Of a DNA stretch of 64,000 nt, positions 12,054-49,191 are shown in pieces. The notes under the pieces are model-generated. The model was not told the DNA's origin. It saw only the letters and a list, made by a program, of their open reading frames with translations, and made no database searches. Position numbers and translations under genes: made by a program. Origin of the DNA: an uncultured Gemmataceae bacterium (lineage in GTDB: Bacteria; Planctomycetota; Planctomycetia; Gemmatales; Gemmataceae); NCBI GenBank assembly GCA_963750165.1, contig CAVVPN010000003.1, positions 1,984,001-2,048,000 on the forward strand. Direction: 5' to 3'. The stretch's first letter is position 1. Every line of letters begins with the position of its first letter.

Positions 12054-12632
12054 TTACACGCCGACGGCGGCCTGTTCGGCATGAACCGTGGTCGTCTTCG
12101 CTCGCGTCTGACGCAGCAGGTCCCTAGCCCGTTCCACCTCGTCGGCCGTTCCGTGGGCGACCAGGAGGAGTTTGCCGTTCTTGACCTCGGTCTCGTATTG
12201 CAGGACACTGTTCTTCGGAATGCCGATACTGGCCAGCGCGGCGCCGAGGGCGCTGACCCCGCCCACGACGGCGGCGCCTTCGAGGGCGCCGACGAACCAG
12301 GCCACCATGGGTCCCGCCACGAGCAGCGGACCAATGCCCGGCACCCAGAAGAACGCGGAGCCGAACAGCAGCCCCCAGAAGCCGCCCCAGAACGCCCCCA
12401 CCTTGCCCCAGTACAGCATGCGATCGCCGGTAGTGTAGTAGCCCACGACGTGTTCTTCCGTGTGGTAATCCTTGCCGACGATCGACAGCCTTTTCATGTC
12501 GAAGCCGTCCCTCTGAAGTTCGCGGATGGCTTCTTCAGCCCGGTCGTGCGATTCAAAGACGGCGACGACGGAGTTCGTGTTGGACATCATCTGATTCCTT
12601 GCCTTTCGTTGCAGAGCGATATGGTTCCTCAA
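12054..12632 (-). CDS. General stress protein (YflT/DUF1269-like), copy 1
   Basis: SVVAVFESHDRAEEAIRELQ, TEEHVVGYY, WGGFWGLLFGSAFF; close paralogue at 25489-26067. Confidence 0.85.
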   Translation of the reverse strand: MRNHIALQRKARNQMMSNTNSVVAVFESHDRAEEAIRELQRDGFDMKRLSIVGKDYHTEEHVVGYYTTGDRMLYWGKVGAFWGGFWGLLFGSAFFWVPGIGPLLVAGPMVAWFVGALEGAAVVGGVSALGAALASIGIPKNSVLQYETEVKNGKLLLVAHGTADEVERARDLLRQTRAKTTTVHAEQAAVGV

Positions 12633-12634
12633 GC

Positions 12635-13138
12635 TCAGCGCTCGTCCCAGCCGGCGAGAACGCGTTCGATCTCCTCCTTGTGCCGCGTCTCATCCGCGAC
12701 CTGGTTTTCCAGGCTCACCTTCAGGCCGACGTCCCCGATGGCATCCGCCTGACGCAGCCGCTGGTCGTAGTCCGCGATCGCTTGTTTCTCGGCGGCGAGC
12801 GCGTGCTCCAGCATTTCCCTCGGCTGCTCGGCGGGGGGGACCGGGCGCGGTTGGGTCGTCGGTTCGCCTCCGAGGGCGGCGATCTTGTCCGCCAGGAACT
12901 GAGCATGTCCCTGCTCATCGACAATCTCGGCCTGGAAGAGGGCGCGCAGTTCCCTGCGGTACGGCCCCGTCAGCTTGGCCGAGTATTGGATGTACATCAC
13001 GATGGCCTGGTATTCGCCGGCCAGGTCGTGGTTGAGGCCCTCGATAAGGGCCTTGCGATCCGCTCCTGGCGGGGTCGGCTTGTTATTCCCCGCGACGCGG
13101 GTGTTCGGCTCGCCTTTTGTCGGTGTTCCTACAGACAT
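12635..13138 (-). CDS. Ferritin/bacterioferritin-like di-iron protein
   Basis: LNHDLAGEYQAIVMY, DEQGHA, AEKQAI and DETRH metal-ligand pattern. Confidence 0.85.
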   Translation of the reverse strand: MSVGTPTKGEPNTRVAGNNKPTPPGADRKALIEGLNHDLAGEYQAIVMYIQYSAKLTGPYRRELRALFQAEIVDEQGHAQFLADKIAALGGEPTTQPRPVPPAEQPREMLEHALAAEKQAIADYDQRLRQADAIGDVGLKVSLENQVADETRHKEEIERVLAGWDER

Positions 13139-13254
13139 GGTTCGGACCTCCTCGTGGTTGTTGATCTTCTCGACACGCGAATTACGTGCCGGGCATGAGC
13201 ATCCTACCCGCCGTTTCCTTCACCGTTGCACGATCTCCTCACCCATCGCGAACG

Positions 13255-13423
13255 AAAAAAAAGCCGGCGTGGACGAACACCCTTGGTATTCGTCCACGCC
13301 GGCTTACTCGTCTAATGGGCCCCCCTGGCATGGCAGGGTTGCCCTTTAGTTAGTCTTCCGACGACTTCATAATGAAGTCTGTAGCGGAGCCGGTTGAAAG
13401 TTCACCAAGGCCCCGCAGTTTTT
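13255..13423 (-). ncRNA. Putative cis-regulatory leader RNA with intrinsic terminator, copy 1
   Basis: 17 bp perfect stem (13261-13277/13289-13305) plus U8 on the minus strand; upstream sequence conserved in three copies. Confidence 0.7.
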
Positions 13424-13451
13424 AATATACGCCTCTGACCAGGGAATGCAA
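13424..13451 (-). promoter_or_regulatory. sigma70-like promoter of leader copy 1
   Basis: TTGCAT-16 bp-TATATT; same position in all three copies. Confidence 0.6.
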
Positions 13452-27198: not shown

Positions 27199-27780
27199 CT
27201 ACTTGCGGACCGGCTTCTTTGCGGAAGCCGACTCGTCTTTCTTCTTTATCTTGGTGATCTTGCCCTCGCGCTCGACGACCAGCACCAGGTCACCCGAAGT
27301 GAAGAGATCGACGGTCGCCACCCTGCCCGTGCTGTCCATGTACTCGATGTCCTCGGCGAGCTTGAAGGTCTTCTCGACCTCCTTGCCCTCGTACTGCATC
27401 TTGACGGTCACGGTGCCCGTCTTGGCATCCACCCTGATGATCTTGGCTTCGTTGGCTTCCTTCTTCATCTTGGTGATCTCGCCTGCGTGCTCGTTGATCA
27501 GCACCAGGTCACCCGCAGTGAAGATGCCGGCGGTCGCCACCTTGCCCGTGCTGTCCGAGTACTCGATGTCCGCGGCGAGCTTGAACGTCTTCTCGACCTC
27601 CTTGCCCTTGCTCTGCATCTTGACCGTCACGGTGCCCTTCTTGGCATCCATCTTGGTGATCTGGGCTTCCTTGGCATCCTTGCCGGTGTCGTCCTTGCTA
27701 ACGCTCTTCACCTTGTCAGCAACCACGAAGCACGCGCACGCGCCCAGAATCACCACGGAACACAGCATCGAACGGAACAT
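27199..27780 (-). CDS. Secreted protein with two tandem OB-fold-like repeats
   Basis: Signal peptide; DAKKGTVTVKM...GKEVEKTFKLA.DIEY.DSTG occurs twice. Confidence 0.75.
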   Translation of the reverse strand: MFRSMLCSVVILGACACFVVADKVKSVSKDDTGKDAKEAQITKMDAKKGTVTVKMQSKGKEVEKTFKLAADIEYSDSTGKVATAGIFTAGDLVLINEHAGEITKMKKEANEAKIIRVDAKTGTVTVKMQYEGKEVEKTFKLAEDIEYMDSTGRVATVDLFTSGDLVLVVEREGKITKIKKKDESASAKKPVRK

Positions 27781-28012
27781 GAAACATTCTCCTTTGCTGC
27801 TCCATGCAGCTATCAGATTCCGGCCAAGTAACGCACTCGGCCGCTGAATCTCACAACACATCAGACCAACTTGTCGCTCTCGCATTACGCGCCGGGCATG
27901 AGCATGCTACCGGCCGTTTCCTCCCACCGCCGCGGGTGTTGCTTCGATGCCGTTGGGCTTCTCTGATTGGGCCGGCTCCCTCACGCCCGGGGATGCCGGC
28001 TCGGGTCGCCCA

Positions 28013-29148: not shown

Positions 29149-29979
29149 TCACGTCAAGTACGTTCCCGCGTGCTGTTGTTGACCACGGTAGCCGAAATTC
29201 TCCAACACCTCCGAATGTGCGGGTAAGCGCACGACGAACTCGCTGCCGCGGCCCAGTCCCGCGCTATACGCGCTCGCGCTGCCGCCGTGCATCTCCGCCA
29301 GCTTGCGAACCAGCGCCAGGCCGATGCCCAGTCCGCCCTGCGAATGATCGAACGTGCGCTCCACCTGCCAAAAGGGATCGAAAATATGCGGGAGCATCTC
29401 CGGATGGATACCGATCCCGCTATCCCGGACCCGCAACACAACATCGGCGCCCTGCACCTCCGCCGTCACCCAGATGCGGCCGCCTGTCGCCATGTACTTG
29501 GCTGCATTGTTCAAGAGGTTCGTGAGCACCTGCTCCAAGCGGACGGGATCCGCATCAAAGACCACGGACTCCGCCGGCAGGGTAACTTCAATCTTGTGGC
29601 CGCGCCCTTCGGCGGACGCGCGTATCGTCTCGACCGCTCGGGTCACGGTTTGGGCCAGATCCAGCGGCTGTCTGCGCAACTGGATCTTGCCGTGTTCGAT
29701 ACGGGAAACCTCCAGCATGTCTTCGACCAGGCGGCCGATGGATTGCGTTTGCCGTTCCATCAAGCTCCGGACCCATTCCCGCGTAGCCGTATCGTCCCCC
29801 TGCTGTTCGAGGATGCGCAGGGCGTTACGGATCGCGGTCAAAGGGCTGCTCAACTCGTGTCCCAGTAAGGCCAGGAACTCGTGCATGTGCCGGTTGGCTT
29901 CGCGGAGTTCTCCGTCGGACCGAGCATCCCCTTTCGCTTCTTGAGTTCGTTCACGTCTCCTCATAACTGGGCTCGCCAT
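29149..29979 (-). CDS. Sensor-less histidine kinase (HisKA + HATPase)
   Basis: EFLALLGHELSSPL, NLLNNAAKY, DSGIGI, GGLGIGL. Confidence 0.9.
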   Translation of the reverse strand: MASPVMRRRERTQEAKGDARSDGELREANRHMHEFLALLGHELSSPLTAIRNALRILEQQGDDTATREWVRSLMERQTQSIGRLVEDMLEVSRIEHGKIQLRRQPLDLAQTVTRAVETIRASAEGRGHKIEVTLPAESVVFDADPVRLEQVLTNLLNNAAKYMATGGRIWVTAEVQGADVVLRVRDSGIGIHPEMLPHIFDPFWQVERTFDHSQGGLGIGLALVRKLAEMHGGSASAYSAGLGRGSEFVVRLPAHSEVLENFGYRGQQQHAGTYLT

Positions 29980-30168: not shown

Positions 30169-30420
30169 TCAGTCCAATCTCGCGAGATAGATCGAGATCA
30201 AGCGACGAAGCAATTCTCCCGTTGTCAGACCCACATGCGAAGCCGCCATTTCCAGTTCCATCAGCTGCCAGCTGGGCAAGAGCAAATCTAACTCCTTGAA
30301 AGATTCTTCTTCTTGCCCGTACGAGGTTCCGTTGGTAAGCCCGCGGCCCGTGCGCCGCAGTTCAAAAGCACGCACCGATTGGGCGTTCCGGTGGACCATG
30401 GCAGCATCCGATTCATCCAT
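30169..30420 (-). CDS. Small ribbon-helix-helix-like protein; first gene after leader copy 2
   Basis: ELDLLLPSWQLMELEMAASHVGLTTGELLRRLI; start uncertain. Confidence 0.5.
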   Translation of the reverse strand: MDESDAAMVHRNAQSVRAFELRRTGRGLTNGTSYGQEEESFKELDLLLPSWQLMELEMAASHVGLTTGELLRRLISIYLARLD

Positions 30421-30466: not shown

Positions 30467-30636
30467 AAAAAAAAGCCGGCGTGGACGAAGACCCTGAGGT
30501 ATTCGTCCACGCCGGCTTACTCGTCTAACGGGCCCCCCCTGGCACGGCAGGGTTGCCCTCTAGTTAGTCTTCCGACGACTTCAAATGAAGTCTATAGCGG
30601 AGCCGGTTGAAAGTTCACCAAGGCTCCCAATTTTTC
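30467..30636 (-). ncRNA. Putative cis-regulatory leader RNA with intrinsic terminator, copy 2
   Basis: Stem 30473-30489/30502-30518 plus U8; highly similar to copy 1. Confidence 0.7.
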
Positions 30637-30664
30637 AGTGTACGCCTCTGACCAGGGAATGCAA
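30637..30664 (-). promoter_or_regulatory. sigma70-like promoter of leader copy 2
   Basis: TTGCAT-16 bp-TACACT. Confidence 0.6.
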
Positions 30665-30900
30665 GCGGAGTTTAGCCGGAATCGCTCCCAATCCGACGCG
30701 AACCACGACGCGGCAATCACTTGCGGCAATTCCAAGGTGCGAGGATTATCTCACTTCGCGTCGCTGAGGTGGATTGCCCACCCGCGCGCGCTATCATAAT
30801 CTCCTGATGGACCACGAACCCCCACGAACCCTGGCTCCTGCCGTGCCTAAATGGCACCGTGCGGGCACCGACCGGGTCTGGAAACACTTTCGAGGTCACC

Positions 30901-31277
30901 ATGAAAACACGAGGCGAAATCGAAGCCGCCATCTGCGAAGGGATGGCACGCCTTCAACAGGAGTACATGGGCCGGGGACCCAAGGACATTCACGCCCACC
31001 TGTTTGGTGACCTTTTCCTGGTTCGCTTGCAGGGTGTCCTGACCCAGGCCGAAAAGCAACTGGTAAAGTCGGAGTCTGCCGAAAAGGTCGGGATCTGCTC
31101 AAAGAAGTCCGGGCGCAGCTAATCGAGACGGCGCGGCCGGTCCTGGAAGCAATGATCCAGGAGGCCACAGGCGTCAAGGTGTTGAGCCTGCACCACGACA
31201 TAAGCACCGTTACCGGCGAAGAGGTCGTGCTCTTCACCTTGGTTGCAACCCCTCCCTTCCGCGATGCAAAGAAGTAA
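30901..31277 (+). pseudogene. DUF2294 (MpsC-like) protein, frameshift near 31087
   Basis: MKTRGEIEAAICEGMARLQQEYMGRGPKDI; LHHDISTVTGEEVVLF follows in another frame. Confidence 0.85.
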
Positions 31278-31300
31278 TAGGCCCTTCCGGGCGGCGTCGC

Positions 31301-32578
31301 TTACGGGCTTTTCGCCGGCAGGGCAGGTCGCGGTCCCCACCCCTGTCCTTCCAGCCACGATAGCCCAAGGAAGAGCACCAGGCACCCGGCCACGTACTCC
31401 ACGAAGACTTCCGTCAACAACTGTTCGCGCGACCAGACCACGCTGAATCCGATGAGGAGGGCGAGGGTGACCGCCAGGGCCCCGATCGTGCGACCCCACG
31501 CCGGACGCGCCCGCTCCAAGAGATGGGCCATCATCCCGTAGACCGCCGCCCCCCGAAGCGGGGCCAACCCGGCGAAGCCAAAGGGCCAGGCCAAGGCCTT
31601 GGCCGGCTCGATGTCCTCGTGCCGGAGCAGGCCGAGGAGAACAAGTCCCACCCCTTCGCTGGCCACGAGGGCCCAGAGCAGCGCGGCGGCTTCTCGCCAC
31701 GGGCGGCCGTCGTACCACAATCGCAGCATGAAAAGAGCCACGACCGCAACCACGGCGGGGAGGCTTCCCAGATAGCTCCCACCGGTCGCCACGGCGTCGA
31801 GCCACGGGACGTGACGGTCCGCGATCCATTCCTTGACGTGCCGGTCCTCATTCGACGGCTCGGCGTGACGCTCGGCCACGATCACGACCACCGCCAGGCA
31901 GACCACGACGAGGACTGCCGCGACGACCCCTTGCCAGACCTGGGAGCGGAGCAGGCCATCCCACGAGCCTGCCGGCAGCCGCCGGACACGCCGCCACAGG
32001 TAGGGCAGCCCGAGAAGGACTATCGCGCAGCCCAGGATGATCAGCCCACCCCGGCCCAGCCACTTGTGGAGGACGTCCCAGCTCTGCCCGCAATAGTAGC
32101 CAAGCAAGGACATGCTCACGGCCCAGGCCACCGCGCCCCCCACGTTGGCCAGGAGGAAGCGCGGCCAGGCCATCCCCGAAGTACCCGCGGCCAACGCTGC
32201 CACCACCCGCAGACCGGCGATGAACCGGGAGAAGAAGATGGTCAACGTACCGTAGTGCTCGAAGTAGCCCTCGACAACCTGTAGGGTCCGGGGTGTCAGG
32301 AAGAGGAAGCGCTTGCTCTGCTGGAGCCGGCGCCGGGCCCAGCGCCGCCCGAGCCAGAAGCCCAGGTTGTCGCCCAGCACGGCGGCGATCGCGGTGACGA
32401 CCATGACGCAGACGAGGGAGAGCGGCGAGCCGGACCGGCTGGCGAGCAGGCTGGCCAACAGGACGGCGGTCTCGCCTGGTACCGGCAGCCCGGCGCTTTC
32501 CGCCAATACGGCGGCGAAGAGGACAGGGTAGCCATAGAGGCTGAGCCACCCAGCCAGGGCCTGGAAGTTCTCATCCAC
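31301..32578 (-). CDS. DedA family membrane protein with degenerate PAP2-like C-terminus, copy 1
   Basis: AESAGLPVPGETAV, GDNLGFWLGR, RFIAGLR; GTG start. Confidence 0.88.
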   Translation of the reverse strand: MDENFQALAGWLSLYGYPVLFAAVLAESAGLPVPGETAVLLASLLASRSGSPLSLVCVMVVTAIAAVLGDNLGFWLGRRWARRRLQQSKRFLFLTPRTLQVVEGYFEHYGTLTIFFSRFIAGLRVVAALAAGTSGMAWPRFLLANVGGAVAWAVSMSLLGYYCGQSWDVLHKWLGRGGLIILGCAIVLLGLPYLWRRVRRLPAGSWDGLLRSQVWQGVVAAVLVVVCLAVVVIVAERHAEPSNEDRHVKEWIADRHVPWLDAVATGGSYLGSLPAVVAVVALFMLRLWYDGRPWREAAALLWALVASEGVGLVLLGLLRHEDIEPAKALAWPFGFAGLAPLRGAAVYGMMAHLLERARPAWGRTIGALAVTLALLIGFSVVWSREQLLTEVFVEYVAGCLVLFLGLSWLEGQGWGPRPALPAKSP

Positions 32579-36275: not shown

Positions 36276-36788
36276 TTACTGTTGCGAATCCACGTGTCTG
36301 GTCTTGCTGTGCCGGTCCGCATCCTGGCTATGGTCGTGCGCGGAGGCAGCCTGCTTCGGGGCATTGACATCAAGATCGCCCGGTGCATTGCCGCTCCACG
36401 TTTCTGGAGGAGCACTGCCAGCCAGTTGGAAGACTTGCACAACATTACCGGTCGTGAACGCCTGCACGACGGCACCGCTTTTCGGCTCGATTTCCGCAGT
36501 CGCCTCGCGCACGTCCATCCCGGTGATTCTTCTGATCTCCTGCCGCAACGAGTCAGAGGAGTTGGCGAACAGTTGTCGGTGGAACTCCTGCATCTGAGCG
36601 GCACCTTCCGGAGTCTTGGCCAGGTTTCTTTCGGCCGGCGACAAGGCATCGTGAAGCGTGATCACCAGGGTTCCCTCGCTCAGGACCACGGTCACGGATT
36701 TGGGCACGTGGTTGCCCGTTCGTCGCTGCTCGAAAGCGATAGCCGCCTGGGCAATCTGTTGCGCCATGGTTGATTTGGCCCTGTCCAC
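36276..36788 (-). CDS. DUF2294 (MpsC-like) protein, divergent subtype; first gene after leader copy 3
   Basis: AFEQRRTGNHVPKSVTVVLSEGTLVITLHDALSPAERNL...IRRITG. Confidence 0.8.
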   Translation of the reverse strand: MDRAKSTMAQQIAQAAIAFEQRRTGNHVPKSVTVVLSEGTLVITLHDALSPAERNLAKTPEGAAQMQEFHRQLFANSSDSLRQEIRRITGMDVREATAEIEPKSGAVVQAFTTGNVVQVFQLAGSAPPETWSGNAPGDLDVNAPKQAASAHDHSQDADRHSKTRHVDSQQ

Positions 36789-36836: not shown

Positions 36837-37004
36837 AAAAAAAAAGCCGGCGTGGCCGAACACCCCAAGGTATTCGACCACGCCGGCTTACTCGTCTGAC
36901 GGACCCCTCGGCACGGCCGGGTTGTCGTTCAGCTAGTCTTCCGACAAGATCAACCGAAGTCTTTTGCGGAGCCGGTAAAGAACCGAAACTCCCCTTCACC
37001 CTTT
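36837..37004 (-). ncRNA. Putative cis-regulatory leader RNA with intrinsic terminator, copy 3 (diverged)
   Basis: Stem 36844-36860/36873-36889 plus U9; its mismatch reads as G-U only on the minus strand. Confidence 0.7.
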
Positions 37005-37033
37005 AATGTACGCCTCGCGACGGGGAACGACAA
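37005..37033 (-). promoter_or_regulatory. sigma70-like promoter of leader copy 3
   Basis: TTGTCG-17 bp-TACATT. Confidence 0.55.
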
Positions 37034-37191
37034 GGGGAAGGCCGGGAAGGCCGGTGGATCATCGCCCCGCGCCCGGTATCATCATCCCTGGGACGGTCCG
37101 GGAACCGCAGGCCCGCATGCTCCTGCCGTGCCGTCCAGGCCCGGCGCTCGCGCGGGTGCCGAACAGGACTCGGAACGATTTGGAAGTTGCC

Positions 37192-37572
37192 ATGAAGACG
37201 CAGGGGGAAATCGAAGCCGGCATCTGCGAAGGGATGACGCGGTTTGAGCAGGAATACATGGGCCGGGGGCCCAAGGACATTCACGCCCACCTGATCGGTG
37301 ACCTGCTCGTGGTCCGCCTCCAGGGCGTCCTGACCGCAGCCGAACGGCAACTGGTCAAGACGCTGCCGACCGAAAAGGGGCGGAACCTGCTCAAAGAAGT
37401 CCGCACGCAGCTGATGGAAACGGCGCGACCGGTCCTGGAAGCGCTGGTCCAGGAGGTCACTGGCGTCAAGGCATTGAGCCTGCACCACGACATCAGCACC
37501 GTTACCGGCGAAGAGGTCGTGCTCTTCACCCTGTCCGGATCGCCTGCGTTCTGCGAAATGAAGAAGAAATAA
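37192..37572 (+). CDS. DUF2294 (MpsC-like) protein
   Basis: MKTQGEIEAGICEG..FEQEYMGRGPK...LHHDISTVTGEEVVLF. Confidence 0.9.
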   Translation: MKTQGEIEAGICEGMTRFEQEYMGRGPKDIHAHLIGDLLVVRLQGVLTAAERQLVKTLPTEKGRNLLKEVRTQLMETARPVLEALVQEVTGVKALSLHHDISTVTGEEVVLFTLSGSPAFCEMKKK

Positions 37573-37592
37573 GGCCCTCTGGGCGGCGTCGC

Positions 37593-38870
37593 TTACGGGC
37601 TTTTCGCCGGCAGGGCAGGTCGGGGTCCCCACCCCTGCCCTTCCAGCCACCACAGCCCGAGGAAGAGCACCAGGCCCCCCGCCACGTACTCCACGAGGAC
37701 TTCCGTCAACAGCTGTTCGTGCGACCAGACCACGCTGAATCCGATGAGGAAGGCGAGGGTGACCGCCAGGGCGCCGACCGTGCGACCCCACGCCGGGAGT
37801 GGCCGCTGGAAGAGATGTGCCATCATCCCGTAGACCGCCGCCCCTCGGAGCGGGGCCAACCCGGCGAAGCCAAAGGGCCAGGCCAGGGCCTTGGCCGGCT
37901 CGACGTCCTCGTGCCGGAGCAGGCCGAGGAGAACAAGTCCCACCCCTTCGCTCGCCACGAGGGCCCACAAGAGCGCGACCGCCTCCCGCCACGGGCGACC
38001 GTCCTGCCACAACCGCACCATGAAGAGCGCCACGACGGCAGCAACGGCGGGGAGGCTCCCCAGATAGCTCCCCCCGGTCGCCATGGCGTCCAGCCACGGA
38101 ACGTGCCGGTCCGCGATCCATTGCTCGACCTGCCGGTCCTCATTCGGCGGCGCGGGGTGACGCTCGGCCAGCATCACGATCACCTCCAGGCAGACCACGA
38201 CGAGGACTGCCGCGACGACCCCTTGCCAGACCTGGGAGCGGAGCAGGCGGTCCCATGAGCCGGCCGGCAGCCGCTGGACACGCCGCCACAGGTAGGGCAG
38301 CCCGAGAAGGAGGACCGCGCAGCCCAAGAGGATCAGCCCACCCCGGCCCAGCCACTTGTGCAGGGCGTGCCAGCTCTGCCCGCAGTAGTAACCCAGTAAA
38401 GACATGCTCACGGCCCAGGCCACCGCGCCCCCCGCGTTGGCCAGGAGGAAGCGCGGCCAGGCCATCCGCGAGGTGCCGGCGGCCAGCGCTGCCACCACGC
38501 GCAGCCCGGCGATGAACCGGGCGAAGAAGATGGTCAAGGTGCCGTAGTGCTCGAAGTAGCCCTCGACAACCAGCAAGGTTCGGGGGGTCAGGAAAAGGAA
38601 GCGCTTGCCCTGCTGAAGCCGGCGCCGAGCCCAGCGCCGCCCGAGCCAGAAGCCCAGGTTGTCGCCCAGCACGGCGGCGACGGCGGCGACGACCATGACC
38701 CAGACGAGGGAGAGCGGCGAGCCGGGCCGGCTGGCGAGCAGGCCGGCCAGAAGGACGGCGGTCTCACCGGGTACTGGCAGCCCGGCGGTTTCTGCGAGTA
38801 CGGCGGCAAAGAGGATAGGGTAGCCATAGAGGCTGAGCCACCCGGCCAGGGCCTGGAAGATCTCATCCAC
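37593..38870 (-). CDS. DedA family membrane protein with degenerate PAP2-like C-terminus, copy 2
   Basis: Close paralogue of 31301-32578. Confidence 0.88.
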   Translation of the reverse strand: MDEIFQALAGWLSLYGYPILFAAVLAETAGLPVPGETAVLLAGLLASRPGSPLSLVWVMVVAAVAAVLGDNLGFWLGRRWARRRLQQGKRFLFLTPRTLLVVEGYFEHYGTLTIFFARFIAGLRVVAALAAGTSRMAWPRFLLANAGGAVAWAVSMSLLGYYCGQSWHALHKWLGRGGLILLGCAVLLLGLPYLWRRVQRLPAGSWDRLLRSQVWQGVVAAVLVVVCLEVIVMLAERHPAPPNEDRQVEQWIADRHVPWLDAMATGGSYLGSLPAVAAVVALFMVRLWQDGRPWREAVALLWALVASEGVGLVLLGLLRHEDVEPAKALAWPFGFAGLAPLRGAAVYGMMAHLFQRPLPAWGRTVGALAVTLAFLIGFSVVWSHEQLLTEVLVEYVAGGLVLFLGLWWLEGQGWGPRPALPAKSP

Positions 38871-39312: not shown

Positions 39313-40167
39313 CTACCCGAAGCGAGGCGCTCCGGCCAGGGAAAAGATGACCACTTCTTCGCCGGTCACGGTGCTGATGTCATGGTGCATACTCAACACC
39401 TTGACGCCAGTGACCTCGTGGACCAGAGATTCCAGCATCGGGCGTGCCAACTCCAGCAGTTGCTTCCGTACTTGCTTGATGAGATCCCTTCCTTTCTCCG
39501 GCGACAACGATTTGCCGAGTTGGCGTTCGGCCAGCGTCAAAACACCTTGAATGCGGACCACCAGGAGGTCTTTGATGAGATGGGTGTGGATGTGCTCCGA
39601 CCGCCATCCCAGATACTCCTCTTGAAAGCGAATGATCCCATCACAGATCGCCGCCTCGCACTCTGCTTGCGTAAGGGTTTTTGACTTGCGCTCGTTCCTG
39701 ATTCGTCGAGCTTCGTCAATCGGCAAGCGCCGCTCTGCTCCGACACCCGCACGCTCTTTCGCCCGTTTTGGCGCTTGGCCCGCACCTGAGACCGCGACAC
39801 TGGCTAAGACCGCTTTTATTTCTGTCAGAGCAACGGGCTTGACGAGGACTGCATCGCACCCGGCCTTCATCGCCGAGGATCTGTGTTCCTCGTCTTTCTG
39901 GCCTGTGATGGCCACGATTTTCGTTTGAGCGAAGGCACGAATCTGGCGAAAGCGCGTAACGAGACCACAGCCATTCATGTCAGGCATGACCAAATCGACC
40001 AGCATCAGATCCGGCCGAAATGCGGTTGCAACTTCCAGTGCCTTCGCCCCGCCATAGGTCACATGCACCTGGTTGCCGAGTTCCTCAATCAGCAAACCCA
40101 AGGCGTCAGCGCCGTCGCGGTTGTCATCAACTACGAGAACCCGAAGAGTCTTATCGGTCGCAGGCAT
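39313..40167 (-). CDS. Response regulator: receiver domain + DUF2294 output domain
   Basis: VLVVDD, LVDLVMP, AITG and LVKP, then KTLTQAECEAAICDG...HHDISTVTGEEVVIF. Confidence 0.88.
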   Translation of the reverse strand: MPATDKTLRVLVVDDNRDGADALGLLIEELGNQVHVTYGGAKALEVATAFRPDLMLVDLVMPDMNGCGLVTRFRQIRAFAQTKIVAITGQKDEEHRSSAMKAGCDAVLVKPVALTEIKAVLASVAVSGAGQAPKRAKERAGVGAERRLPIDEARRIRNERKSKTLTQAECEAAICDGIIRFQEEYLGWRSEHIHTHLIKDLLVVRIQGVLTLAERQLGKSLSPEKGRDLIKQVRKQLLELARPMLESLVHEVTGVKVLSMHHDISTVTGEEVVIFSLAGAPRFG

Positions 40168-40242
40168 AAGGTCCTTTCCTTTCGCGAGCCTACGGCTTTG
40201 GTGATGCCAGAACCGCAAGTCATCATCGCCGCTCCGTGGGCA

Positions 40243-43200
40243 TCACGTCGCCTTCTCCGGGACGCTCGCCAGTATTTCCTGCACCTTCTCGAACTTGGCG
40301 GGTTTGACCAGGAAGTGATCGAACCCGGCTTCCTGCGAACGCCGCCGGTCTGACTCCTTCCCGTAGCCCGTCATGGCAACCAGGACGACCCTCTGGAAAA
40401 CCGGTTGCTGACGCATCCTCTTCGCTACCTCATAACCGTCGAGCCCCGGCAAGCCAATGTCCAACAGGGCCACGTGAGGCCGGTAGTCGAGGGCCGCTTC
40501 CAGCGCGGTCGGGCCGTCTGGAGCCGTCCGAACATCATGCCCTGACTCCGTCAAGAGCAGCGCTAAACTCGCAGCCGTATCTGCGTTGTCATCAACCACC
40601 AGCACCCGCAAGGATGGTCCGGTCGGTTTGGCCGTTTCAGTAGGAGGCGACGGCGGCTGCGGTTCGGCTGTCAGCACCACCGGCAGGCGCACGACGAACT
40701 CGCTGCCTTGCCCCAAAGCACTGGAGGCCGCCACCTTTCCTCCGTGCATTGCCACAATCCGTTGCACCAACGCCAGCCCAATGCCCAACCCGCCTTGCGA
40801 GCGGGCCAGGGATCGTTCGGCTTGCGTGAACAAGTCGAAGATGCGTGGCAGGAGGTCGGGGGCGATGCCGACGCCCGAATCCCGCACTTGCAGCACAGCT
40901 TCATTGCCCTCTTGTTGAAGGCTCAGCCCAATCTGACCGCCTTCGTCCGTGTATTTCGCGGCGTTGTTGAGCAGGTTAACGACCACCTGGACCAGACGGG
41001 TCGAGTCGCCGTCGATCCAAATGGGCGAAGGCGGGAGATGCACGGCGAGGGTGTGCCGACGCTGCTCGATCATGGAACGAACCGTCTCTACGCCATCTTC
41101 CACAATGGCCCGCATGTCCAATTGCTCCCGCCGGAGATGAATCCTACCCGTCGAAAAGCGGGACACTTCCAAAAGATCATCGACCAGATGGACCAGTTGC
41201 CCAACTTGACGCTCAATGATCATCCCGGCCTGTTGCAGAAGCCCGCTCTCGCCCCGCCGAAGCTGAAGAAGTTGCACAGCGTTCAAGATGGGGGCAAGGG
41301 GGTTGCGGAGTTCGTGCGACAGCATCGCCAAGAACTCGTCCTTGCGGCGGTCGGAGTCCCGTAGCTTGTTCAGCAGCCGCAGCCGCTCGTAGGCCACCGC
41401 GACGTAGTGGGCGACGGTTTGCAGAACGGCCAGTTCGTCGGGATCGAACTCGTCCCTCGTCCGGCTGGCGAAGGAGAGCGTGCCGATCAGCAGTTTGTCG
41501 GACATCAGCGGGTTGCAGGCGTAAGCCCGGAGGCCGAACGACTTGGCCAACTGGGCCTTCGGGTCGTCGGTCTGCTGGATGTGGGTCGCCACGATGGGCT
41601 GGCGCTGCAAGGCCACCATGCCGCAGATGTGTTGGCCGAACTTCAGCCGCTCGATGGAACGGGCCGTGTCTTCGGGGATGCCGACGTACGATGCCAGCCG
41701 CAGGGCATCGCCGCTATCGTCCACCATGTAATTGAAGTAAGCGTCCACGCCAAGCGGCGGGCCGATCTTGTCGAGCAGGCCGTGCAGCATGGCGTCTGGG
41801 GCGCCGGTGGACAGCAGCACTCCCGCCGCCTCCCAGAGGAGATGCAACCGCTCGTTCTGGGTCTTGACGGCGGCTTCGGCGCGCTTGCGGTCGGTCATGT
41901 CCACCAGCATCACGACCACGCCGTCAATCTTGTTCTCCAGGGTCCGATACGGGCGAAGGCGCAAGGAGTACCAGCGGCCGCCCTTGTCCCGGACATCACA
42001 CTCCTTGGTGCTGACCGTGTCGAACACCTCCGCCAGGAGCAGCTCCAGGTCGGGGAGGTCGTCGAGGTTGTGCATGATGTCGGCCAACGGCCGGCCCAGG
42101 GCGGCGGGGCCAAGGTTAAGCAGCTTCTCCGCTGCCGGCGTGAACCGCCGCACACACAGGTCCGGCCCAAGCATGACGATGGCCATCTGGACGCTGCCGA
42201 GCAGGTTGACGAGGTCGTTGTTGACCCGGTTCAGCTCCGCGTTGCGGTTGTTCAGCTCGTCGTTGACGGTGGCCAGCTCTTCGTTGCTCGACTGGATCTC
42301 CTCCTTGGAGGTTTCCAGCTCTTCGTTCGTGCTTTGCAGCTCTTCGTTGGCCGACTGGACCTCCTCGTTGGCGGATTGCAGTTCCTCGTTGGCGGCCTCC
42401 TGCTGCTCGATCAACGATTGCAGATACTCGCGCGTGGCGGATAACTCTTGCGCCAGGCGTGCGTTGTCAGGGTCTGGCGAGCCGGGTTGCGTTTGCACCC
42501 GGAGCGCTGCTTCGCTCGCATCTCCTGCGAGAGCTGACGGCGCCTTGCTCGCCTGGGACGAATCTTCGAACAGGACCAGGAAGCCGCCTTCCTTTCCCCC
42601 GCTACCCTTAATCGGAATCACTTCGATAGCGACCTCGCGGTAGCCGCCGTTGGACTTGACGCGCAAGCCCTCCTCCCGCACCGGAGCCTGCTCCTTGCCC
42701 GCCCGGAGGACGGCCGCGCGGACGGCGACGAGCAGTCCTTCACGGAGCATCTTCAGCAGGCTCAGGCTGGCCTTGCCGGGGGACGGCGCCAGGTACGGGC
42801 CGGTGTCGCCGCGGTATTGCAGGATGTCCAGGTCGGCGGTGACGAGCACGCCGGGCGGGGCGAACTTGGCCGAGAGGACGCGGTCCGCCTCCCGGTGCAG
42901 GTCCGCGCCGTCGTTCGGCCGCGCCGTGATGGGCGTGAACGGGGACTGTAGTGCCCCGCCGTGTTGCAGTGGGAAATGGCCGTGCCCCGGACCGGAACCC
43001 GGTTTCCTGGAGTAGATCTTGTGCTTGGCATCCTCCGCCTCGAACAGGTTCCGGTAGGTGCCGATCGTCTCCGAGCCGCCCAGCCACAGGCAACCCGCCG
43101 GCTTGAGCGCATAGTGCAGGGTCGGCACGATCTTCTGTTGCAGCACCGGCTCCAGGTAGATGAGCAGGTTGCGGCAGCTAATCAGGTCGATGCGCGAGAA

Positions 43201-44472
43201 AGGCGGGTCGGCCAGCACGTTGTGCCGGGAGAAGACGCAGGCATCGCGGATCGACTTGCTGATCCGGTAGCTGCCGTCCACCTCGGTGAAGAATCGCCGC
43301 AGGCGTTCCGGCGAAACGTCCTGGGCGATGTCCTTTGAGTAGACGCCCGCGCGGGCTTTCTCGATGCCCGCGGGGTTCAGGTCGGTGGCGAAGAGCTGGA
43401 GCGGCACGGAGCTGCCCGCGGCCTCGGCGGCCTCCGCGAACACCATTGCCAGGGAGTACGCTTCCTGCCCGGTCGAGCAGCCAAGCGTCCAGAGCCGCAC
43501 CGGGTCCTGCCGGGACCGGTCTTTGAGCAAGCGAGGGAACACTTTGCTTTTGAGCGCCTCGAACGACTCCTTGTCGCGGAAGAAGCTGGTGACGCTGATC
43601 AGGATGTCCTGGTACAGGGCGTCCACTTCGGCCGGCGTCTCGCGCAGGAACCGCACGTATTCGGGCAGCGTGTCCATCTTCTGAAAGACCATGCGGCGGG
43701 TGACGCGGCGGAAGAGGGTGTTGAACTTGTAGTGGGTGAAATCGACGCCGGTGGCGTGGTGGAGCAGTTGCACGACCTCGGCGAGGTTCGGCTTGTCGTC
43801 CGTCTCCCGGGCCTCCGCCACCGGCGCCGCATACGGGTGTTGACTGATGCGGACGATCTCCCGGGCGATCCCGTCCGGAGGCAGCACGAAGTCCACGCAC
43901 CCGGAGGCGATGGCGCTGTGCGGCATCCCCTCGTGCTGGGCCGTCGCGTCCTGGGCGAAGGTGATGCCGCCCTCCCCCTTGATCGCTTCCAGGCCGACGG
44001 TTCCGTCCGAGGCCGTGCCGGACAGAACCACACCGATGGCCTGGTGCCGCCGGTCTTCCGCCAGCGCGCGGAAGAACTGATCCACCGGCCGGTGCAGCCC
44101 GCCCTCGCGCGGCAGGAGCTGCAACGCCCCGCGGACGAGGATCATGCTTCGGTCAGGCGGGATTACGTAGACGTGGTTCGGCTCGACCGTCGCCTCTTCG
44201 TTAACCTCCATGACCGGCATTTTCGTTGCCCGCGACAGGATTTCCGCCAGGGCGCTGGGATGCGTGGGCGCCAGGTGCTGCACCAGGACGAAGGCCATGC
44301 CGGTATCGGCCGGCAGCGCCTTGAGCAGTTGCGTGAACGCCTCCAGCCCGCCGGCCGAGGCGCCGACGCCGACAATCGGGAACGCCTCGCCTTCGACCAG
44401 CACGTCGCATTCGTCCGCGGCATCGTTCGCCGCCGGCGATTCAGGAAGTTGGTCGGCTGGCGTTTTTGTCAT
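40243..44472 (-). CDS. CheB-CheR-PAS-GAF hybrid histidine kinase with C-terminal receiver
   Basis: GASAGG, VTSFFRD, GCSTGQEAYS, ISCRNLLIY, EELQS coiled coil, GAF, MLSHELRNPL, VDDN...DIGLP. Confidence 0.95.
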   Translation of the reverse strand: MTKTPADQLPESPAANDAADECDVLVEGEAFPIVGVGASAGGLEAFTQLLKALPADTGMAFVLVQHLAPTHPSALAEILSRATKMPVMEVNEEATVEPNHVYVIPPDRSMILVRGALQLLPREGGLHRPVDQFFRALAEDRRHQAIGVVLSGTASDGTVGLEAIKGEGGITFAQDATAQHEGMPHSAIASGCVDFVLPPDGIAREIVRISQHPYAAPVAEARETDDKPNLAEVVQLLHHATGVDFTHYKFNTLFRRVTRRMVFQKMDTLPEYVRFLRETPAEVDALYQDILISVTSFFRDKESFEALKSKVFPRLLKDRSRQDPVRLWTLGCSTGQEAYSLAMVFAEAAEAAGSSVPLQLFATDLNPAGIEKARAGVYSKDIAQDVSPERLRRFFTEVDGSYRISKSIRDACVFSRHNVLADPPFSRIDLISCRNLLIYLEPVLQQKIVPTLHYALKPAGCLWLGGSETIGTYRNLFEAEDAKHKIYSRKPGSGPGHGHFPLQHGGALQSPFTPITARPNDGADLHREADRVLSAKFAPPGVLVTADLDILQYRGDTGPYLAPSPGKASLSLLKMLREGLLVAVRAAVLRAGKEQAPVREEGLRVKSNGGYREVAIEVIPIKGSGGKEGGFLVLFEDSSQASKAPSALAGDASEAALRVQTQPGSPDPDNARLAQELSATREYLQSLIEQQEAANEELQSANEEVQSANEELQSTNEELETSKEEIQSSNEELATVNDELNNRNAELNRVNNDLVNLLGSVQMAIVMLGPDLCVRRFTPAAEKLLNLGPAALGRPLADIMHNLDDLPDLELLLAEVFDTVSTKECDVRDKGGRWYSLRLRPYRTLENKIDGVVVMLVDMTDRKRAEAAVKTQNERLHLLWEAAGVLLSTGAPDAMLHGLLDKIGPPLGVDAYFNYMVDDSGDALRLASYVGIPEDTARSIERLKFGQHICGMVALQRQPIVATHIQQTDDPKAQLAKSFGLRAYACNPLMSDKLLIGTLSFASRTRDEFDPDELAVLQTVAHYVAVAYERLRLLNKLRDSDRRKDEFLAMLSHELRNPLAPILNAVQLLQLRRGESGLLQQAGMIIERQVGQLVHLVDDLLEVSRFSTGRIHLRREQLDMRAIVEDGVETVRSMIEQRRHTLAVHLPPSPIWIDGDSTRLVQVVVNLLNNAAKYTDEGGQIGLSLQQEGNEAVLQVRDSGVGIAPDLLPRIFDLFTQAERSLARSQGGLGIGLALVQRIVAMHGGKVAASSALGQGSEFVVRLPVVLTAEPQPPSPPTETAKPTGPSLRVLVVDDNADTAASLALLLTESGHDVRTAPDGPTALEAALDYRPHVALLDIGLPGLDGYEVAKRMRQQPVFQRVVLVAMTGYGKESDRRRSQEAGFDHFLVKPAKFEKVQEILASVPEKAT

Positions 44473-44725
44473 GGGGAGTTCTCCGTCGGCAGTGCCGCTG
44501 CCAGTGCCGTCGCCAGCACTGCCACGAGTCGCCCCCCCCCCACCTGAATTTGTGTACATCATCGTTTCCACGGCTGTATTCCCTTCAACCACCTGGCGAC
44601 GACAAGAGGAAGAAATGCGATCAGTATATCGGATCGTGCCGCTGACGGACACGCTCGCCACGGGCGGTCCACGGCGCTCGCGCATTGGGAACAGGTGATG
44701 GGGCAGGCGAAAAAGTGCGTTAAGC

Positions 44726-45140
44726 ATGATCCGAAGTAAAAGTAACCAAACCGCAGAGAAACGGGTCGCCAGCGTCTTGATCGTTGATGATCACCCGGCC
44801 GTCCGCGAGGCCCTAACCATCCGATTGTCTCGCGAACGCGACCTGGACGTTTGCGGCGACGCAGCCGATGTCACCGAAGCCTTACGGGTGTTCGACGCCA
44901 CCAACCCCGATGTGGCCGTCATCGACATCTCGCTCAAGGGCGGCGACGGCATCGACCTGATCAAGCGGATCAAGGCACGCAACGATTCCGGCTGTTGATT
45001 TGGTCCATGTATAGCGAGAAGCGAGAGCCTCTGTGCCGAGCGGGCTTTGCCAGCCGGAGCGCTGGGCTACATCAACTAAGGAACAGGCGACCGATCAGAT
45101 CATCTTGGCGATTCGCCGCGTGCCGTACAGAAGCGATGAG
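44726..45140 (+). pseudogene. NarL-type response regulator remnant
   Basis: VLIVDDHPAVRE and DISL, then frameshifted LIWSMYSE and GALGYIN; no HTH. Confidence 0.75.
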
Positions 45141-45379
45141 CTTTCAGGTAGGGACGGTGCGGCCCGGTCGGCATAACGCTTGTAGGGCCTTTCTGTGGAC
45201 CTGCAAAGGGCTATTGGATTGCAGGGTTCGGTACTCTTTCGGTGGGTGAAGGGTGGACTCTGTGGCGCGGCCTTTTTGTCCCGGTGGCTGTTTCGGCGAG
45301 CCCCTCGTTGCTTCCGTGCGGTACAGGCCAGGCTCTCGCGCCGGTGCAGTACAGGACACTTAACGATTGGGAGGTTGCC

Positions 45380-45760
45380 ATGAAGACGCAGGGTGAAATC
45401 GAAGCCGGCATCTGCGAAGGCATGGCGCGGTTTGAGCAGGAATACATGGGCAGGGGGCCCAAGGACATTCACGCCCACCTGATCGGTGACCTGCTCGTGG
45501 TCCGCCTCCAGGGCGTCCTGACCGCGGCCGAACAGCAACTGGTCAAGACGCTGCCGGCCGGGAAGGGGCGGAACCTGCTCAAAGAAGTCCGGACGCAGCT
45601 GATAGAAACGGCGCGACCGGTCCTGGAAGCGCTGGTCCAGGAGGTCACCGGCGTCAAGGTGTTGAGCCTGCACCACGACATCAGCACTGTTACCGGCGAA
45701 GAGATCGTGCTCTTCACCCTGGCCGGATCGCCTGCGTTCCGGGAAACGAAGAAGAAATAG
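45380..45760 (+). CDS. DUF2294 (MpsC-like) protein
   Basis: Near-identical to 37192-37572. Confidence 0.9.
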   Translation: MKTQGEIEAGICEGMARFEQEYMGRGPKDIHAHLIGDLLVVRLQGVLTAAEQQLVKTLPAGKGRNLLKEVRTQLIETARPVLEALVQEVTGVKVLSLHHDISTVTGEEIVLFTLAGSPAFRETKKK

Positions 45761-46409
45761 GCCCTTCAAAGGCTGCCACAAACATTTGTCGTCTGTGACC
45801 AAGGCGAGACTTCTGGCGGGTGAGTTCCTTGCCGCCCCGGGCCATCGGCTCGGCCGCCTCGGTGTCGTGGGTTTGGTCTCCTCCGCGCCGCTGGTACTTT
45901 GGTGGTACTTTGGTGGTTGCGGGCTTTAGCGGGCCCGACAAGCGGCGCCGATCTTGCAGATGATATAGCGTGCGGCCCCCAACGCGCGACGGTACAACAC
46001 CAGCTTTGCTGATCAACACCTCGGGAAGGCCTCGGGAAGGCCCGGGGCAAAGTGAACGCAAGCACCCAGCCGGATTCCGACGGTGACCAGCCAAATCCAG
46101 ATCAGGCGGGCTGCGCGCTTGTCGGTGGGAGTACGAGGCGCCCTTCGACGCCGCACCTATTCATAGCATCGACGACGGTATACCTTCGAGCACGGCGCTG
46201 GCCGGTCCAAGCGACCGCCTGAATCCAGGTCAGGCGCGCCTTCCTTGTCAGACATAGAGAAGGGCATTGCCTGGCGCGTCTCGGTCAAGGAGATTGGACA
46301 GCCGAAGTGGGACCGAGGTACTTCATCCGGGCGAACTCATCCCGGCCTCTGAAGAATTGCCGAGAGCTTTTCCTCACCAGCCCTGCGAGACAAAATGGTA
46401 AAGCAGAGG

Positions 46410-47329: not shown

Positions 47330-47815
47330 TCAGAGTAACCCGTGTTCCGCAAAACTGTAGGCACCGTCTCTCCCAAGGATAATGTGGTCGAGAAGTGGAA
47401 TTCGGAGAAGCTCTCCAGCTTCTTTCAGTTTTCTCGTCATGGCTTTGTCCTCGGGTGAAGGCGAGAGCGAACCAGCGGGATGGTTATGCGCCACAATAAT
47501 CCGAGTCGCCGCCGTCTGGAGCGCCACTCCGAACACAATTCGTGGATCGACCGCAGCATAATCGAGCCCGCCCGTCGCCACTCGTACCCAGCCCAAAGGC
47601 TCAACTGCGTTATTGAGGCAAAGCACAACAAAGTCTTCCGCGTACTCGATTCGGTCCTTGTCCCAGACGGACCGCAAATACTCCTCCGCCGTCTGTGGCG
47701 TCGAGCACACCCAGGGCATCCTCACCTGCCCGGTCTCAGCCTTCCTAATCCTCTTGTACGACACCTTGAGTTCAGCGAGCCTCGCACTCCGTTCAAACGT
47801 CTTTAGCACGATCAT
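47330..47815 (-). CDS. radC: RadC/JAB domain protein
   Basis: AHNHPAGSLSPSPED and LLDHIIL motifs. Confidence 0.9.
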   Translation of the reverse strand: MIVLKTFERSARLAELKVSYKRIRKAETGQVRMPWVCSTPQTAEEYLRSVWDKDRIEYAEDFVVLCLNNAVEPLGWVRVATGGLDYAAVDPRIVFGVALQTAATRIIVAHNHPAGSLSPSPEDKAMTRKLKEAGELLRIPLLDHIILGRDGAYSFAEHGLL

Positions 47816-47873
47816 GATGAAATCCTCCGTGATGCAAGCCGGGGGTTCTCACCCCGGCTCCTCGTTTGTTTCG

Positions 47874-48251
47874 CTAGTCCTCGTCCGGAAGCATCACGGT
47901 GATGCACGGCGATGCGTCGTCACTTGGTCCGCAGACGGCTTTCAGCGTCACGGGTTTCGGTTCCCCCTCGTCGTTTTGAACGAGGAGGCTGTAAAGAATT
48001 GTCGAAGCTTCCCAGCGGGAACGGCGCACCGCATCCCGGAGCATCCAGAGAATGTCCCAGAGTCGCCCGCGTTCATCCTGTCCGGTGACACCCTCCGGCA
48101 CCGTCACATACTTCCCGTAGGCCGTCCCGGTGATGGCGACCGGGAAGCGGATGCCCGCTTCCTTTGCCGTTTCCGTCACGTCGACAAGAACGCCGTCCGC
48201 AATCGCCTCTTTCCTCGTGTAAGCAAAGATAACGTTCCAATCATCTGACAT
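47874..48251 (-). CDS. DUF6573-like mobile-element protein
   Basis: YTRKEAIADGVLVDV...GQDERGRLWDIL...ITVMLPDED. Confidence 0.75.
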   Translation of the reverse strand: MSDDWNVIFAYTRKEAIADGVLVDVTETAKEAGIRFPVAITGTAYGKYVTVPEGVTGQDERGRLWDILWMLRDAVRRSRWEASTILYSLLVQNDEGEPKPVTLKAVCGPSDDASPCITVMLPDED

Positions 48252-48605
48252 GGTGGTTCTCCAAAGCGGGCCGACCTTCACCCGCCACCCGTGGCGGTCG
48301 ACCGCGGTTTCGAGCCTCCATCCCGGAAACCGGACTCCCGGAAGAGGAGGGGGCAGCGGGCTTCATTCGAAATTGCTCATGAAGCCCGCTGCCCCCTCCG
48401 ACGGGAGTTAAAAAACAAAGCCTCGGGCCTTCAGGCCCGAGACGATATAGTGCGACGGCTCAAGCGTCCTCCGGGTGCGGAGCAAAGCAAGGGGCGTGAC
48501 AGGCAAAGCCTGGCGCGACCGTTGCTGCGGAGTGCCCGGAGGACGCGCCGGCCGTCGCCAAAAAAACCACTTCCCTCAATTGATTCTCGGAAGAGACTCG
48601 AAGTG

Positions 48606-48836: not shown

Positions 48837-48918
48837 GCTCCTCCTTGGTTAATTGGGACCACACCACTAACAAAGGCCGACTATCGGCCGCTTTCTGTGG
48901 CGGCGGTCCCGAAAAGCC

Positions 48919-49125: not shown

Positions 49126-49191
49126 GCTGCTCCTTGCCGGAAAATGGCCGGGGGGATTTCTCTCCAGATATGTCTCCCCCGGCACGTTCAT

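Follow-up and report, generated by a model that had tools for sequence, protein, structure and literature searches.

Three described antitermination systems come closest to the leader RNA considered here. In the hutP-hutH system of Bacillus subtilis, as presented in PMC12591593, HutP is a small alpha/beta protein encoded just upstream of the terminator that gates its target gene, and its antitermination is activated by ligand. HutP acts as a hexamer on single-stranded NAG sites inside the terminator and senses histidine and Mg2+ (PMC12591593). In the BglG/SacY/LicT systems, the RAT is an imperfect hairpin with internal loops that lies on the 5′ arm of the terminator, the default state is OFF, and the hairpin is stabilized by the protein (PMC12591593; PMC5393181). 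ANTAR proteins (EutV, AmiR, NasR) are described as carrying an RNA-level output domain that is often fused to a receiver, serving a dispersed regulon, and binding dual hairpins through a three-helix bundle (PMC12591593).

The protein family at issue is Pfam PF10057 (DUF2294), which includes the MpsC protein of the Staphylococcus aureus mpsABC genes and B. subtilis YbcI, and which is linked to a bicarbonate transporter. As reported in PMC6689103, S. aureus mpsA is down 1.7-2.5-fold in 5% CO2, and deletion of mpsC brings no growth defect in air. RNAs have also been noted upstream of ndhF in both organisms. S. aureus RsaX05 is a terminator-bearing candidate listed as "Cis-acting leader of ndhF?" (PMC2790875), and B. 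subtilis ncr181 is a 158-nt RNA between adaB and ndhF (PMC2965217). These uncharacterised RNAs may belong to the leader family described below.

The locus was found in a stretch of 64,000 nucleotides from an uncultured Gemmataceae bacterium, here called the window. Its leader element represents a real, uncatalogued attenuator family with a probable new RNA-binding regulator, the type A form of MpsC.

Three leader copies and their surroundings

The sequence-only reading of the window had reported a non-coding element in three places, and all three copies are present there on the minus strand (Table 1). Their pairwise identities are 92%, 77%, and 77%, with copies 1 and 2 forming the 92% identical pair. 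The promoter hexamers of all three copies match the earlier description, as do the terminators with their U8-9 tracts. Around copy 3, the sole copy scanned, a consensus scanner returned no promoter-like site at its threshold. Of 166 homologues, 108 have a loose TTG-N19-21-TANNNT pattern in the 150 nt upstream, where shuffling predicts 13. Folding z-scores reach -9.7 for copy 1 and -4.9 for copy 3.

Table 1. Predicted leader elements and associated genes in the window (positions counted from its first nucleotide).
Feature	Position	Strand	Basis or remark
Copy 1, promoter hexamers, sigma70-type	13424..13451	-	TTGCAT-16 bp-TATATT; predicted from sequence
Copy 1, two 5′ hairpins with ACCGGCUCCGC and AGACUUC blocks	13363..13417	-	Local to the subfamily; not the switch
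Copy 1, antiterminator rod	13298..13362	-	GUCGG/CCGGC base, 3x3 internal loop AAG/AAG, ACU/AGU helix, upper stem
Copy 1, intrinsic terminator	13255..13305	-	5′ arm is the 3′ base of the rod
Ferritin-like protein gene behind copy 1	12635-13138	-	Domain search
YflT-domain stress protein gene behind copy 1	12054-12632	-	Domain search
Copy 2, promoter hexamers	30637..30664	-	TTGCAT, 16 bp, TACACT
Copy 2, antiterminator rod	30511..30576	-	Folding
Copy 2, intrinsic terminator	30467..30518	-	Predicted
83-aa ORF behind copy 2	30169-30420	-	No family match
Histidine kinase gene behind copy 2	29149-29979	-	Domain search
Type A mpsC, divergent, near copy 2	30907..31241	+	Gene broken by a frameshift in this assembly
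Copy 3, promoter hexamers	37005..37033	-	TTGTCG, 17 bp, TACATT; below threshold of consensus scanner
Copy 3, antiterminator rod	36882..36945	-	Folding
Copy 3, intrinsic terminator	36837..36889	-	Predicted
Type B (degenerate) MpsC gene, first behind copy 3	36276..36773	-	Domain search
Type A MpsC gene (126 aa), divergent from copy 3	37192..37572	+	Candidate RNA-binding antiterminator
REC-MpsC fusion	39313..40218	-	Candidate phosphorylation-gated regulator form
CheB-CheR-PAS-histidine kinase-REC hybrid, directly upstream of REC-MpsC gene	40243..44727	-	Candidate input
Second intact type A MpsC gene	45380..45760	+	92% identical to the gene at 37192; no leader adjoining

With nhmmer, five further copies were located on the contig outside the window (E 7e-28 to 1e-13), which excludes chance as the source of the repeat, and the broad covariance model brings the genome total to eight. 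Four blocks had been called invariant, and they are so across the three window copies, but ACCGGCUCCGC and AGACUUC are absent from the five other copies of the genome, which share only the stretch from GUCGGANGACU to the terminator. A leader-peptide reading, based on an AUG inside GGAUGACU, was ruled out, as that base is U in 62%, C in 29%, and A in 9%.

Around copy 3, the genes form a module of the order mpsC-B, copy 3, mpsC-A, with the type B gene read to the left and the type A gene to the right. The DUF2294 paralogue that had been noted behind copy 3 is confirmed as a gene; it had been taken for one unrelated target among others, but its family proves to be the constant companion of the RNA. 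The divergent type A gene on the other side of copy 3 had gone without mention. Contigs of soil metatranscriptomes (small shares of five runs, relatives at ≥80% identity) cover the leader and both mpsC genes; none covers 36999-37139, and one spans the leader and the type B gene. These contigs carry no strand, start, or end, DNA may contribute to them, and they are not counted as evidence.

Other repeats and gene clusters surround the leaders. A segment with the type A mpsC gene occurs three times (30832-31381, 37123-37673, and 45311-45861). The first two segments also carry the following opposite-strand VTT/DedA gene, the mpsC of the first is frameshifted, and the third has no adjoining leader. 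A 42-nt stretch 3′ of the copy 1 terminator (13178-13219) recurs at 90% identity at 27881-27922, where it is the start of an ORF without a leader (27199-27885). Stress-type genes in a single orientation make up a long cluster at 7000-29979, both between the leaders and behind them, with four YflT-domain genes, ferritin, two cytidylate-kinase-like genes, a CBS-M50 peptidase, Rieske/cytochrome b-c, G6PD, and GH94. Genes for RadC, DUF6573, DUF932, a DNA methylase, a 2OG-Fe(II) oxygenase, and DUF5131 (47330-51080 and 62877-63981) suggest a mobile element beside the cluster.

Homologues and comparison with catalogued RNA families

By DNA search, 9 of 41 related genomes match the leader. Species genomes were also scanned with a pattern, which gave at least 137 stretches, 134 titled as Planctomycetota and three on one contig titled delta proteobacterium; the core letters in these 137 loci are partly fixed by the search pattern itself. 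In the 26 copies found without the pattern, there is likewise no variation in GGA and AC (5′ half) or in GCCG (3′ half). Altogether, 172 distinct copies were extracted, nearly all from Planctomycetota, and 159 of them include the 3′ arm of the terminator. These sets contain kin, so counts drawn from them are not independent.

Some loci carry leaders in tandem (L136:291-523, L155:291-524, L111:963-1211, L199:3440-3655, and L208:3450-3611), and in L199 and L208 the first copy has a variant core, as judged by eye. One genome holds well over ten leader copies, four of them within 3 kb (G002:C1035:2503-5510; L011, L016), including one before csrA and one before a fatty acid desaturase. At L290:178-289 (G016:C133), the rod is intact and the U tract is absent; this copy is perhaps decayed or translational.

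A search of the window against Rfam 15, one of the checks proposed with the sequence-only reading, returned no match at the gathering threshold, which places the element in an uncatalogued family. Likewise, no Rfam match was obtained in 20 loci from other taxa, and relaxed E-values yielded only sub-threshold, mutually inconsistent matches. The loose likeness to cobalamin riboswitches that had been remarked upon does not hold. Copy 1 has no cobalamin match at E≤10, conservation does not extend to the GGUGAA…CCGC part, and a B12-binding domain occurs in 1 of 55 Pfam-named downstream ORFs. Burkholderiales-2 RNA (RF02917) weakly resembles the apical hairpin and the GCCGR with which the terminator begins (18.2 bits, E 1.3); its gathering score of 67.9 lies far above, the conserved basal loop falls outside the match, and no RF02917 row was found at E≤1 in 14 homologous loci. 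A description of the system was not found in the literature searched, which extended to the main text of the motif survey PMC11109978, where it goes without mention.

Structure, covariation, and the computed switch

The leader folds as a single irregular rod, consisting of a UCGG/CCGR base, a 3x3 loop, an ACU/AGU helix, a second 3x3 loop, and an upper stem. In the mutual information of 157 representatives, the upper stem, an A-G/G-A swap, and the terminator stand out, and no long-range or pseudoknot pairs appear. Across a set of 87 of the 172 copies, two-sided changes occur at 11 of the 12 pairs of the upper stem, a score reached by none of 500 shuffles, and at 15 of the 19 pairs of the terminator. 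For the upper stem and the terminator alike, covariation exceeds all 500 shuffles and every slid register. The exchange of GGC/GCC for GAC/GUC, first seen in the window copies, thus extends across 87 homologues, but a pairing of UCGUC with GACGA, suggested on the same grounds, is absent from the 45 top covarying column pairs.

Across taxa, a conserved core of the form GG-NNG-AY…RU-ARR-CC could be parsed in 55 of 61 diverse copies. It spans about 14 nt, with 27-61 nt between its halves in nearly all of the 55 copies and a freely variable apex. The variable core pair is C-G in 29 of these copies, U-A in 18, U-G in 8, and C-A in none. In a cross-taxon alignment of 58 copies, the core helix reads C-G 31, U-A 18, and U-G 6, and the adjacent pair U-A 26, C-G 12, and A-U 5. 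The GG/CC basal pairs give no covariation because they are invariant, and the pairs beneath them hold in only about 60% (35 of 58 copies); the base of the rod is therefore short in many taxa.

The base of the rod is also the 5′ arm of the terminator, and the two folds exclude each other. In the window copies, the basal pairs have a probability of 0.84-1.0 in the nascent RNA and of 0.0 once the 3′ arm of the terminator is present, and forcing the rod at full length costs 9.5-11 kcal/mol relative to the terminator fold. The same order, with the rod formed first and then displaced by the terminator, is computed for 140 of 145 testable representatives. By computation, the leader thus has what defines an attenuator in general, an antiterminator that is exclusive with an intrinsic terminator and forms before it. 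The proposal of a cis-acting transcription attenuator with promoter, structured leader, and intrinsic terminator is supported by these folds and by the covariation.

The switch originally proposed within that attenuator, a pairing of CCGGCU with AGCCGG, is contradicted by the same folds. Its pairing probability is at most 0.02 at every transcript length tested and it costs 14-20 kcal/mol relative to the terminator fold, with CCGGCU locked in a local 5′ hairpin; in addition, the ACCGGCUCCGC switch block is present upstream of only 4 of 170 copies. The actual antiterminator is GUCGG paired with CCGRC.

Association of the RNA with mpsC

MpsC is encoded in all nine genomes with a leader DNA match, compared with 18 of the 41 related genomes overall. 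A divergent type A mpsC lies ≤1 kb upstream of 28 of 103 copies, a type B mpsC is the first downstream gene of 23 of 103, and an mpsC of any kind lies within ~1.5 kb in 38 of 86 loci with long flanks. Within the Gemmataceae genome itself, five of the eight copies sit 12-22 kb from any mpsC, so the controlling factor would act in trans.

The first covariance model represented the planctomycete subtype only. Nevertheless, of three Bacillota plasmid records, it found the RNA in two, each time immediately after DUF2294: in Acetoanaerobium with 40.1 bits and in Anoxybacillus with 32.1 bits, the latter between DUF2294 and a sodium-dependent bicarbonate permease. When 80 metagenomic mpsC loci were fetched by protein alone and regardless of RNA, 51 carried an RNA match at E≤0.01, in 48 of the 80 on the same strand and ≤500 nt downstream; the other 29 gave no match at this threshold with the first model, and later searches recovered a few of them. 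Because a covariance model also rewards terminators, a descriptor of the two-sided core was run as well, and it matched 36 of the 80 loci against none in a 1-Mb control contig. The core occurs at 7 of 271 GGY-U5 terminators of the Gemmataceae genome, and six of these are known copies; hence, only 1 of 265 others is rod-like. A loose rod-like motif at a terminator at G000:C3:3259047 (+) is left unscored by the covariance model and is probably due to chance.

With the broad model, 8 of 151 genomes of the phylum score. All eight belong to the 14 that encode MpsC, and no score is obtained in the 137 that lack it. Only this negative side is informative, as five of the eight scoring genomes fed the model and the search was shallow, with 24 candidates scored per genome. 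Five of the 14 MpsC-positive genomes give no match with either model. Model matches in three MpsC-lacking genomes (G012, G023, and G174) were rejected as terminator hairpins without the two-sided core, of which G174 keeps part. Among 20 mpsC loci from genomes without a strong match, 15 show a weak model match beside mpsC, and about half of these (L181, L184, L185, L187, and L189-L191) may be mainly terminator. The seven are terminator-bearing leaders behind mpsC and before carbonic anhydrase, SulP, or isocitrate dehydrogenase; their core is different or reduced, and they are possibly further subtypes. Taken together, the RNA and MpsC probably mark an undescribed regulatory system made up of a protein and an RNA.

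MpsC proteins

Two types of MpsC can be distinguished, a conserved type A and a degenerate type B, with ~25-28% identity between them. R24, K67, and R70 are invariant in 61 of 61 type A sequences; of these, type B is missing K67 and the invariant GRG arginine (R24), and it also lacks the DxST-GE motif found at the C terminus of type A. A quick tree unites planctomycete type A with the REC-MpsC fusions in one group and type B in another. Receiver domains are found in 59 of the best 120 longer MpsC homologues, and the hybrid kinase beside the window's fusion gene may be connected to the leader RNA through it. Among 16 candidates, no MpsC relative lies on a viral contig.

The structure predicted for MpsC (pLDDT 90.7) has the order H-E-E-H-H-E-E. 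Foldseek found no match to this model at E≤0.001, and the best VIA-align match reached Z 6.4 among mixed folds. An RNA-binding fold was considered from RbfA (KH-type, Z 5.3) and a Jag-like RNA-binding protein (Z 4.5) and was set aside, since both scores are at background level. HutP is not among the structural matches listed, an absence that excludes nothing. No PDB sequence falls below E 0.26, and the ESM Atlas search gave no match. The predicted complex of type A with type B scores 0.10, which is evidence in neither direction.

Genes behind the leaders

Domain searches confirm that ferritin and YflT genes, a histidine kinase, and MpsC/DUF2294 follow the three window copies, as had been read from the sequence; the label "RHH-like" for the 83-aa ORF is unconfirmed, since this ORF has no match in Pfam or NCBIfam. 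For the planctomycete subtype, 140 candidate ORFs were scanned (148 listed, with nine overlapping or duplicate frames dropped and one added by hand), and 55 carry a Pfam name; the loci include kin, so the counts are not independent. Twenty-one of the 55 are of what we take to be general-stress type (CsbD 3, Hsp20 3, YflT 3, Transgly_assoc 3, ferritin 2, BON 2, DUF1328 2, and one each of DnaK, PRC, and DUF2934). Ten are regulators, namely five sigma factors, two CsrA, KaiC, REC, and a PAS kinase, and four are fatty acid desaturases. None of the 55 is an inorganic-carbon gene.

Inorganic-carbon genes do follow the leaders of other groups. Of 56 metagenomic leaders, 52 had a readable ORF behind them: PEP carboxykinase in 11, NdhF/DabB-like proteins in 10, mpsC in 8, SbtA in 4, DUF4914 in 3, and AIR carboxylase, a gamma-carbonic-anhydrase-like protein, and a CO dehydrogenase subunit in one each, the remaining 13 being other or unnamed. 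Among the ten NdhF/DabB-like cases, DabA comes next in four and the first ORF call is spurious in one, and isocitrate dehydrogenase follows one of the eight leader-controlled mpsC genes. Variant leaders of other Planctomycetota precede PEPCK, SbtA, beta-carbonic anhydrase with SulP, and isocitrate dehydrogenase. DUF4914 (~620 aa) replaces or follows PEP carboxykinase behind the leader in L262, L241, L224, L229, and L176; it has no PDB relative and is a candidate carboxylating enzyme.

Proposed mechanism and alternatives

It is proposed that type A MpsC is an activating RNA-binding antiterminator of the leader, a reading to which we give a probability of roughly 0.6. By computation, a promoter starts a leader of 110-165 nt, the nascent RNA folds into the rod, and the basal GG/CC stem ties up the sequence of the terminator's 5′ arm. 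Synthesis of the 3′ arm then lets the terminator displace this stem, leaving the default OFF; termination is taken as the default because the terminator is favored over the rod by ~10 kcal/mol. A factor that holds the basal loop (GG-NNG-AY / RU-ARR-CC) would then permit read-through. An ON switch is inferred from this default together with the conserved loop, which exists only in the read-through fold. The factor would be a diffusible protein, most likely type A MpsC, whose gene, lying just upstream or divergent, appears not to be part of the controlled transcript even as the targets change. A small cytoplasmic protein encoded beside the RNA in this manner has the pattern of a dedicated regulator. 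The absence of a growth defect in air on mpsC deletion in S. aureus and the lack of a clear structural relative for the MpsC model count against this assignment.

More loosely, the ancestral signal might be a shortage of inorganic carbon or of a carboxylation product, and the planctomycete subtype might have expanded into a multi-copy stress regulon. The REC-MpsC fusions might allow kinase input, and the leader-controlled type B paralogue could serve as a feedback modulator. It is conceivable, at somewhat less than even odds, that MpsC and the rod constitute a widespread CO2/bicarbonate-sensing antitermination system, acting through a new RNA-binding protein family or through the RNA, which planctomycetes rewired to stress. 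DAB and SbtA transporters, carbonic anhydrases, and carboxylases would then be controlled in several phyla, and soil planctomycetes would have done the rewiring by means of multi-copy leaders, REC-MpsC fusions, and a degenerate paralogue, so that antitermination would take the place of an alternative sigma factor in the stress response.

The rod could instead be a riboswitch aptamer for CO2/bicarbonate, pH, an ion, or a carboxylation metabolite (e.g., oxaloacetate or PEP) that turns genes ON, with MpsC merely a co-selected member of the regulon. In favor of this reading, the inorganic-carbon targets form a coherent set across taxa and the purine-rich internal loops are conserved, with an A-G/G-A swap; 8 of 52 leaders control an mpsC gene, and the S. 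aureus data, with mpsA down in 5% CO2 and no growth defect on mpsC deletion, fit as well (PMC6689103). However, a core of only ~14 nt in one rod with a freely variable apex, and no junction or pseudoknot among the covarying pairs, speaks against an aptamer. Position also places mpsC beyond the controlled unit, since the gene is upstream of the leader at 48 of 80 loci and divergent at 28 of 103; the 137 MpsC-lacking genomes yielded no full copy, and the receiver fusions of MpsC point to a regulator. A riboswitch is therefore considered unlikely.

Another arrangement would make MpsC, or CsrA in planctomycetes, a negative factor that binds the 5′ strand (GGANG in a GUC-GGAN-GAC hairpin), blocks the rod, and favors termination. 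The small hairpin does form in the terminated fold of copies 1 and 2, its GGA(U/A/C)G presumably resembles a CsrA site, csrA is the first gene behind two copies, and a negative role would explain the silent mpsC deletion of S. aureus. The CsrA-type GGA is present in all copies of the planctomycete subtype, partly by construction, but across taxa just 28 of 55 copies have it, while the two-sided loop and its helix persist. Moreover, no covariation is seen in the small hairpin, whose closing pair cannot form in 27 of 87 copies, and the terminator already wins by ~10 kcal/mol unaided, all of which makes a repressor improbable. Lastly, attenuation might be absent altogether, with the terminated transcript of 110-165 nt acting in trans as a small RNA or as a sponge for protein, or with the leaders being a dispersed repeat spread by local duplication. 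A promoter of its own, a terminator of great strength, the 92% identity of copies 1 and 2, the duplicated segment on the flanks of copies 2 and 3, and tandem copies (L136, L155) speak for this reading. Against it, 140 of 145 copies form the antiterminator and then switch, same-strand genes follow at short distance in coherent sets, the helix covariation spans distant taxa, and the rod-like motif is found at only 1 of 265 other GGY-U5 terminators of the genome; the reading is very improbable.

If the activating role of type A MpsC is true, it would provide a function for a DUF found from Bacillus and Staphylococcus to planctomycetes, and a new family would join the short list of RNA-binding antiterminators. 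It would also offer a directly testable account of inorganic-carbon sensing in non-photosynthetic bacteria and of the way they adjust carboxylation and bicarbonate uptake, and the RNA motif would define a predicted planctomycete stress regulon. Both parts are small (a protein of ~120 aa and an RNA of ~110 nt), which makes them cheap to test.

Comparison with known antitermination systems

The leader works like the RAT, HutP, and ANTAR systems, but it fails their defining features where these are testable. It shares with the RAT an imperfect hairpin that overlaps the terminator. The RAT measures ~30 nt, whereas the rod is longer, at ~45-75 nt, and contains a symmetric 3x3 loop; its targets are not those of sugar catabolism, and a scan of 76 window ORFs and of downstream ORFs detected no CAT or PRD domain.

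The gene order recalls HutP, with the regulator directly upstream of the gated terminator, in 48 of the 80 metagenomic loci; in the window, the gene is divergent instead. The small alpha/beta protein and the activation by ligand that characterize HutP (PMC12591593) also correspond to the model proposed for MpsC. In contrast to the HutP sites, which lie inside the terminator, a separate two-sided rod overlaps the terminator here, MpsC has a different order of secondary-structure elements, and up to eight or more leaders occur in one genome.

As for ANTAR, its three-helix bundle and dual hairpins differ from MpsC, which is alpha/beta, and from an RNA that is one rod. What is ANTAR-like is that REC-MpsC fusions are common, the one in the window lying beside a hybrid kinase.
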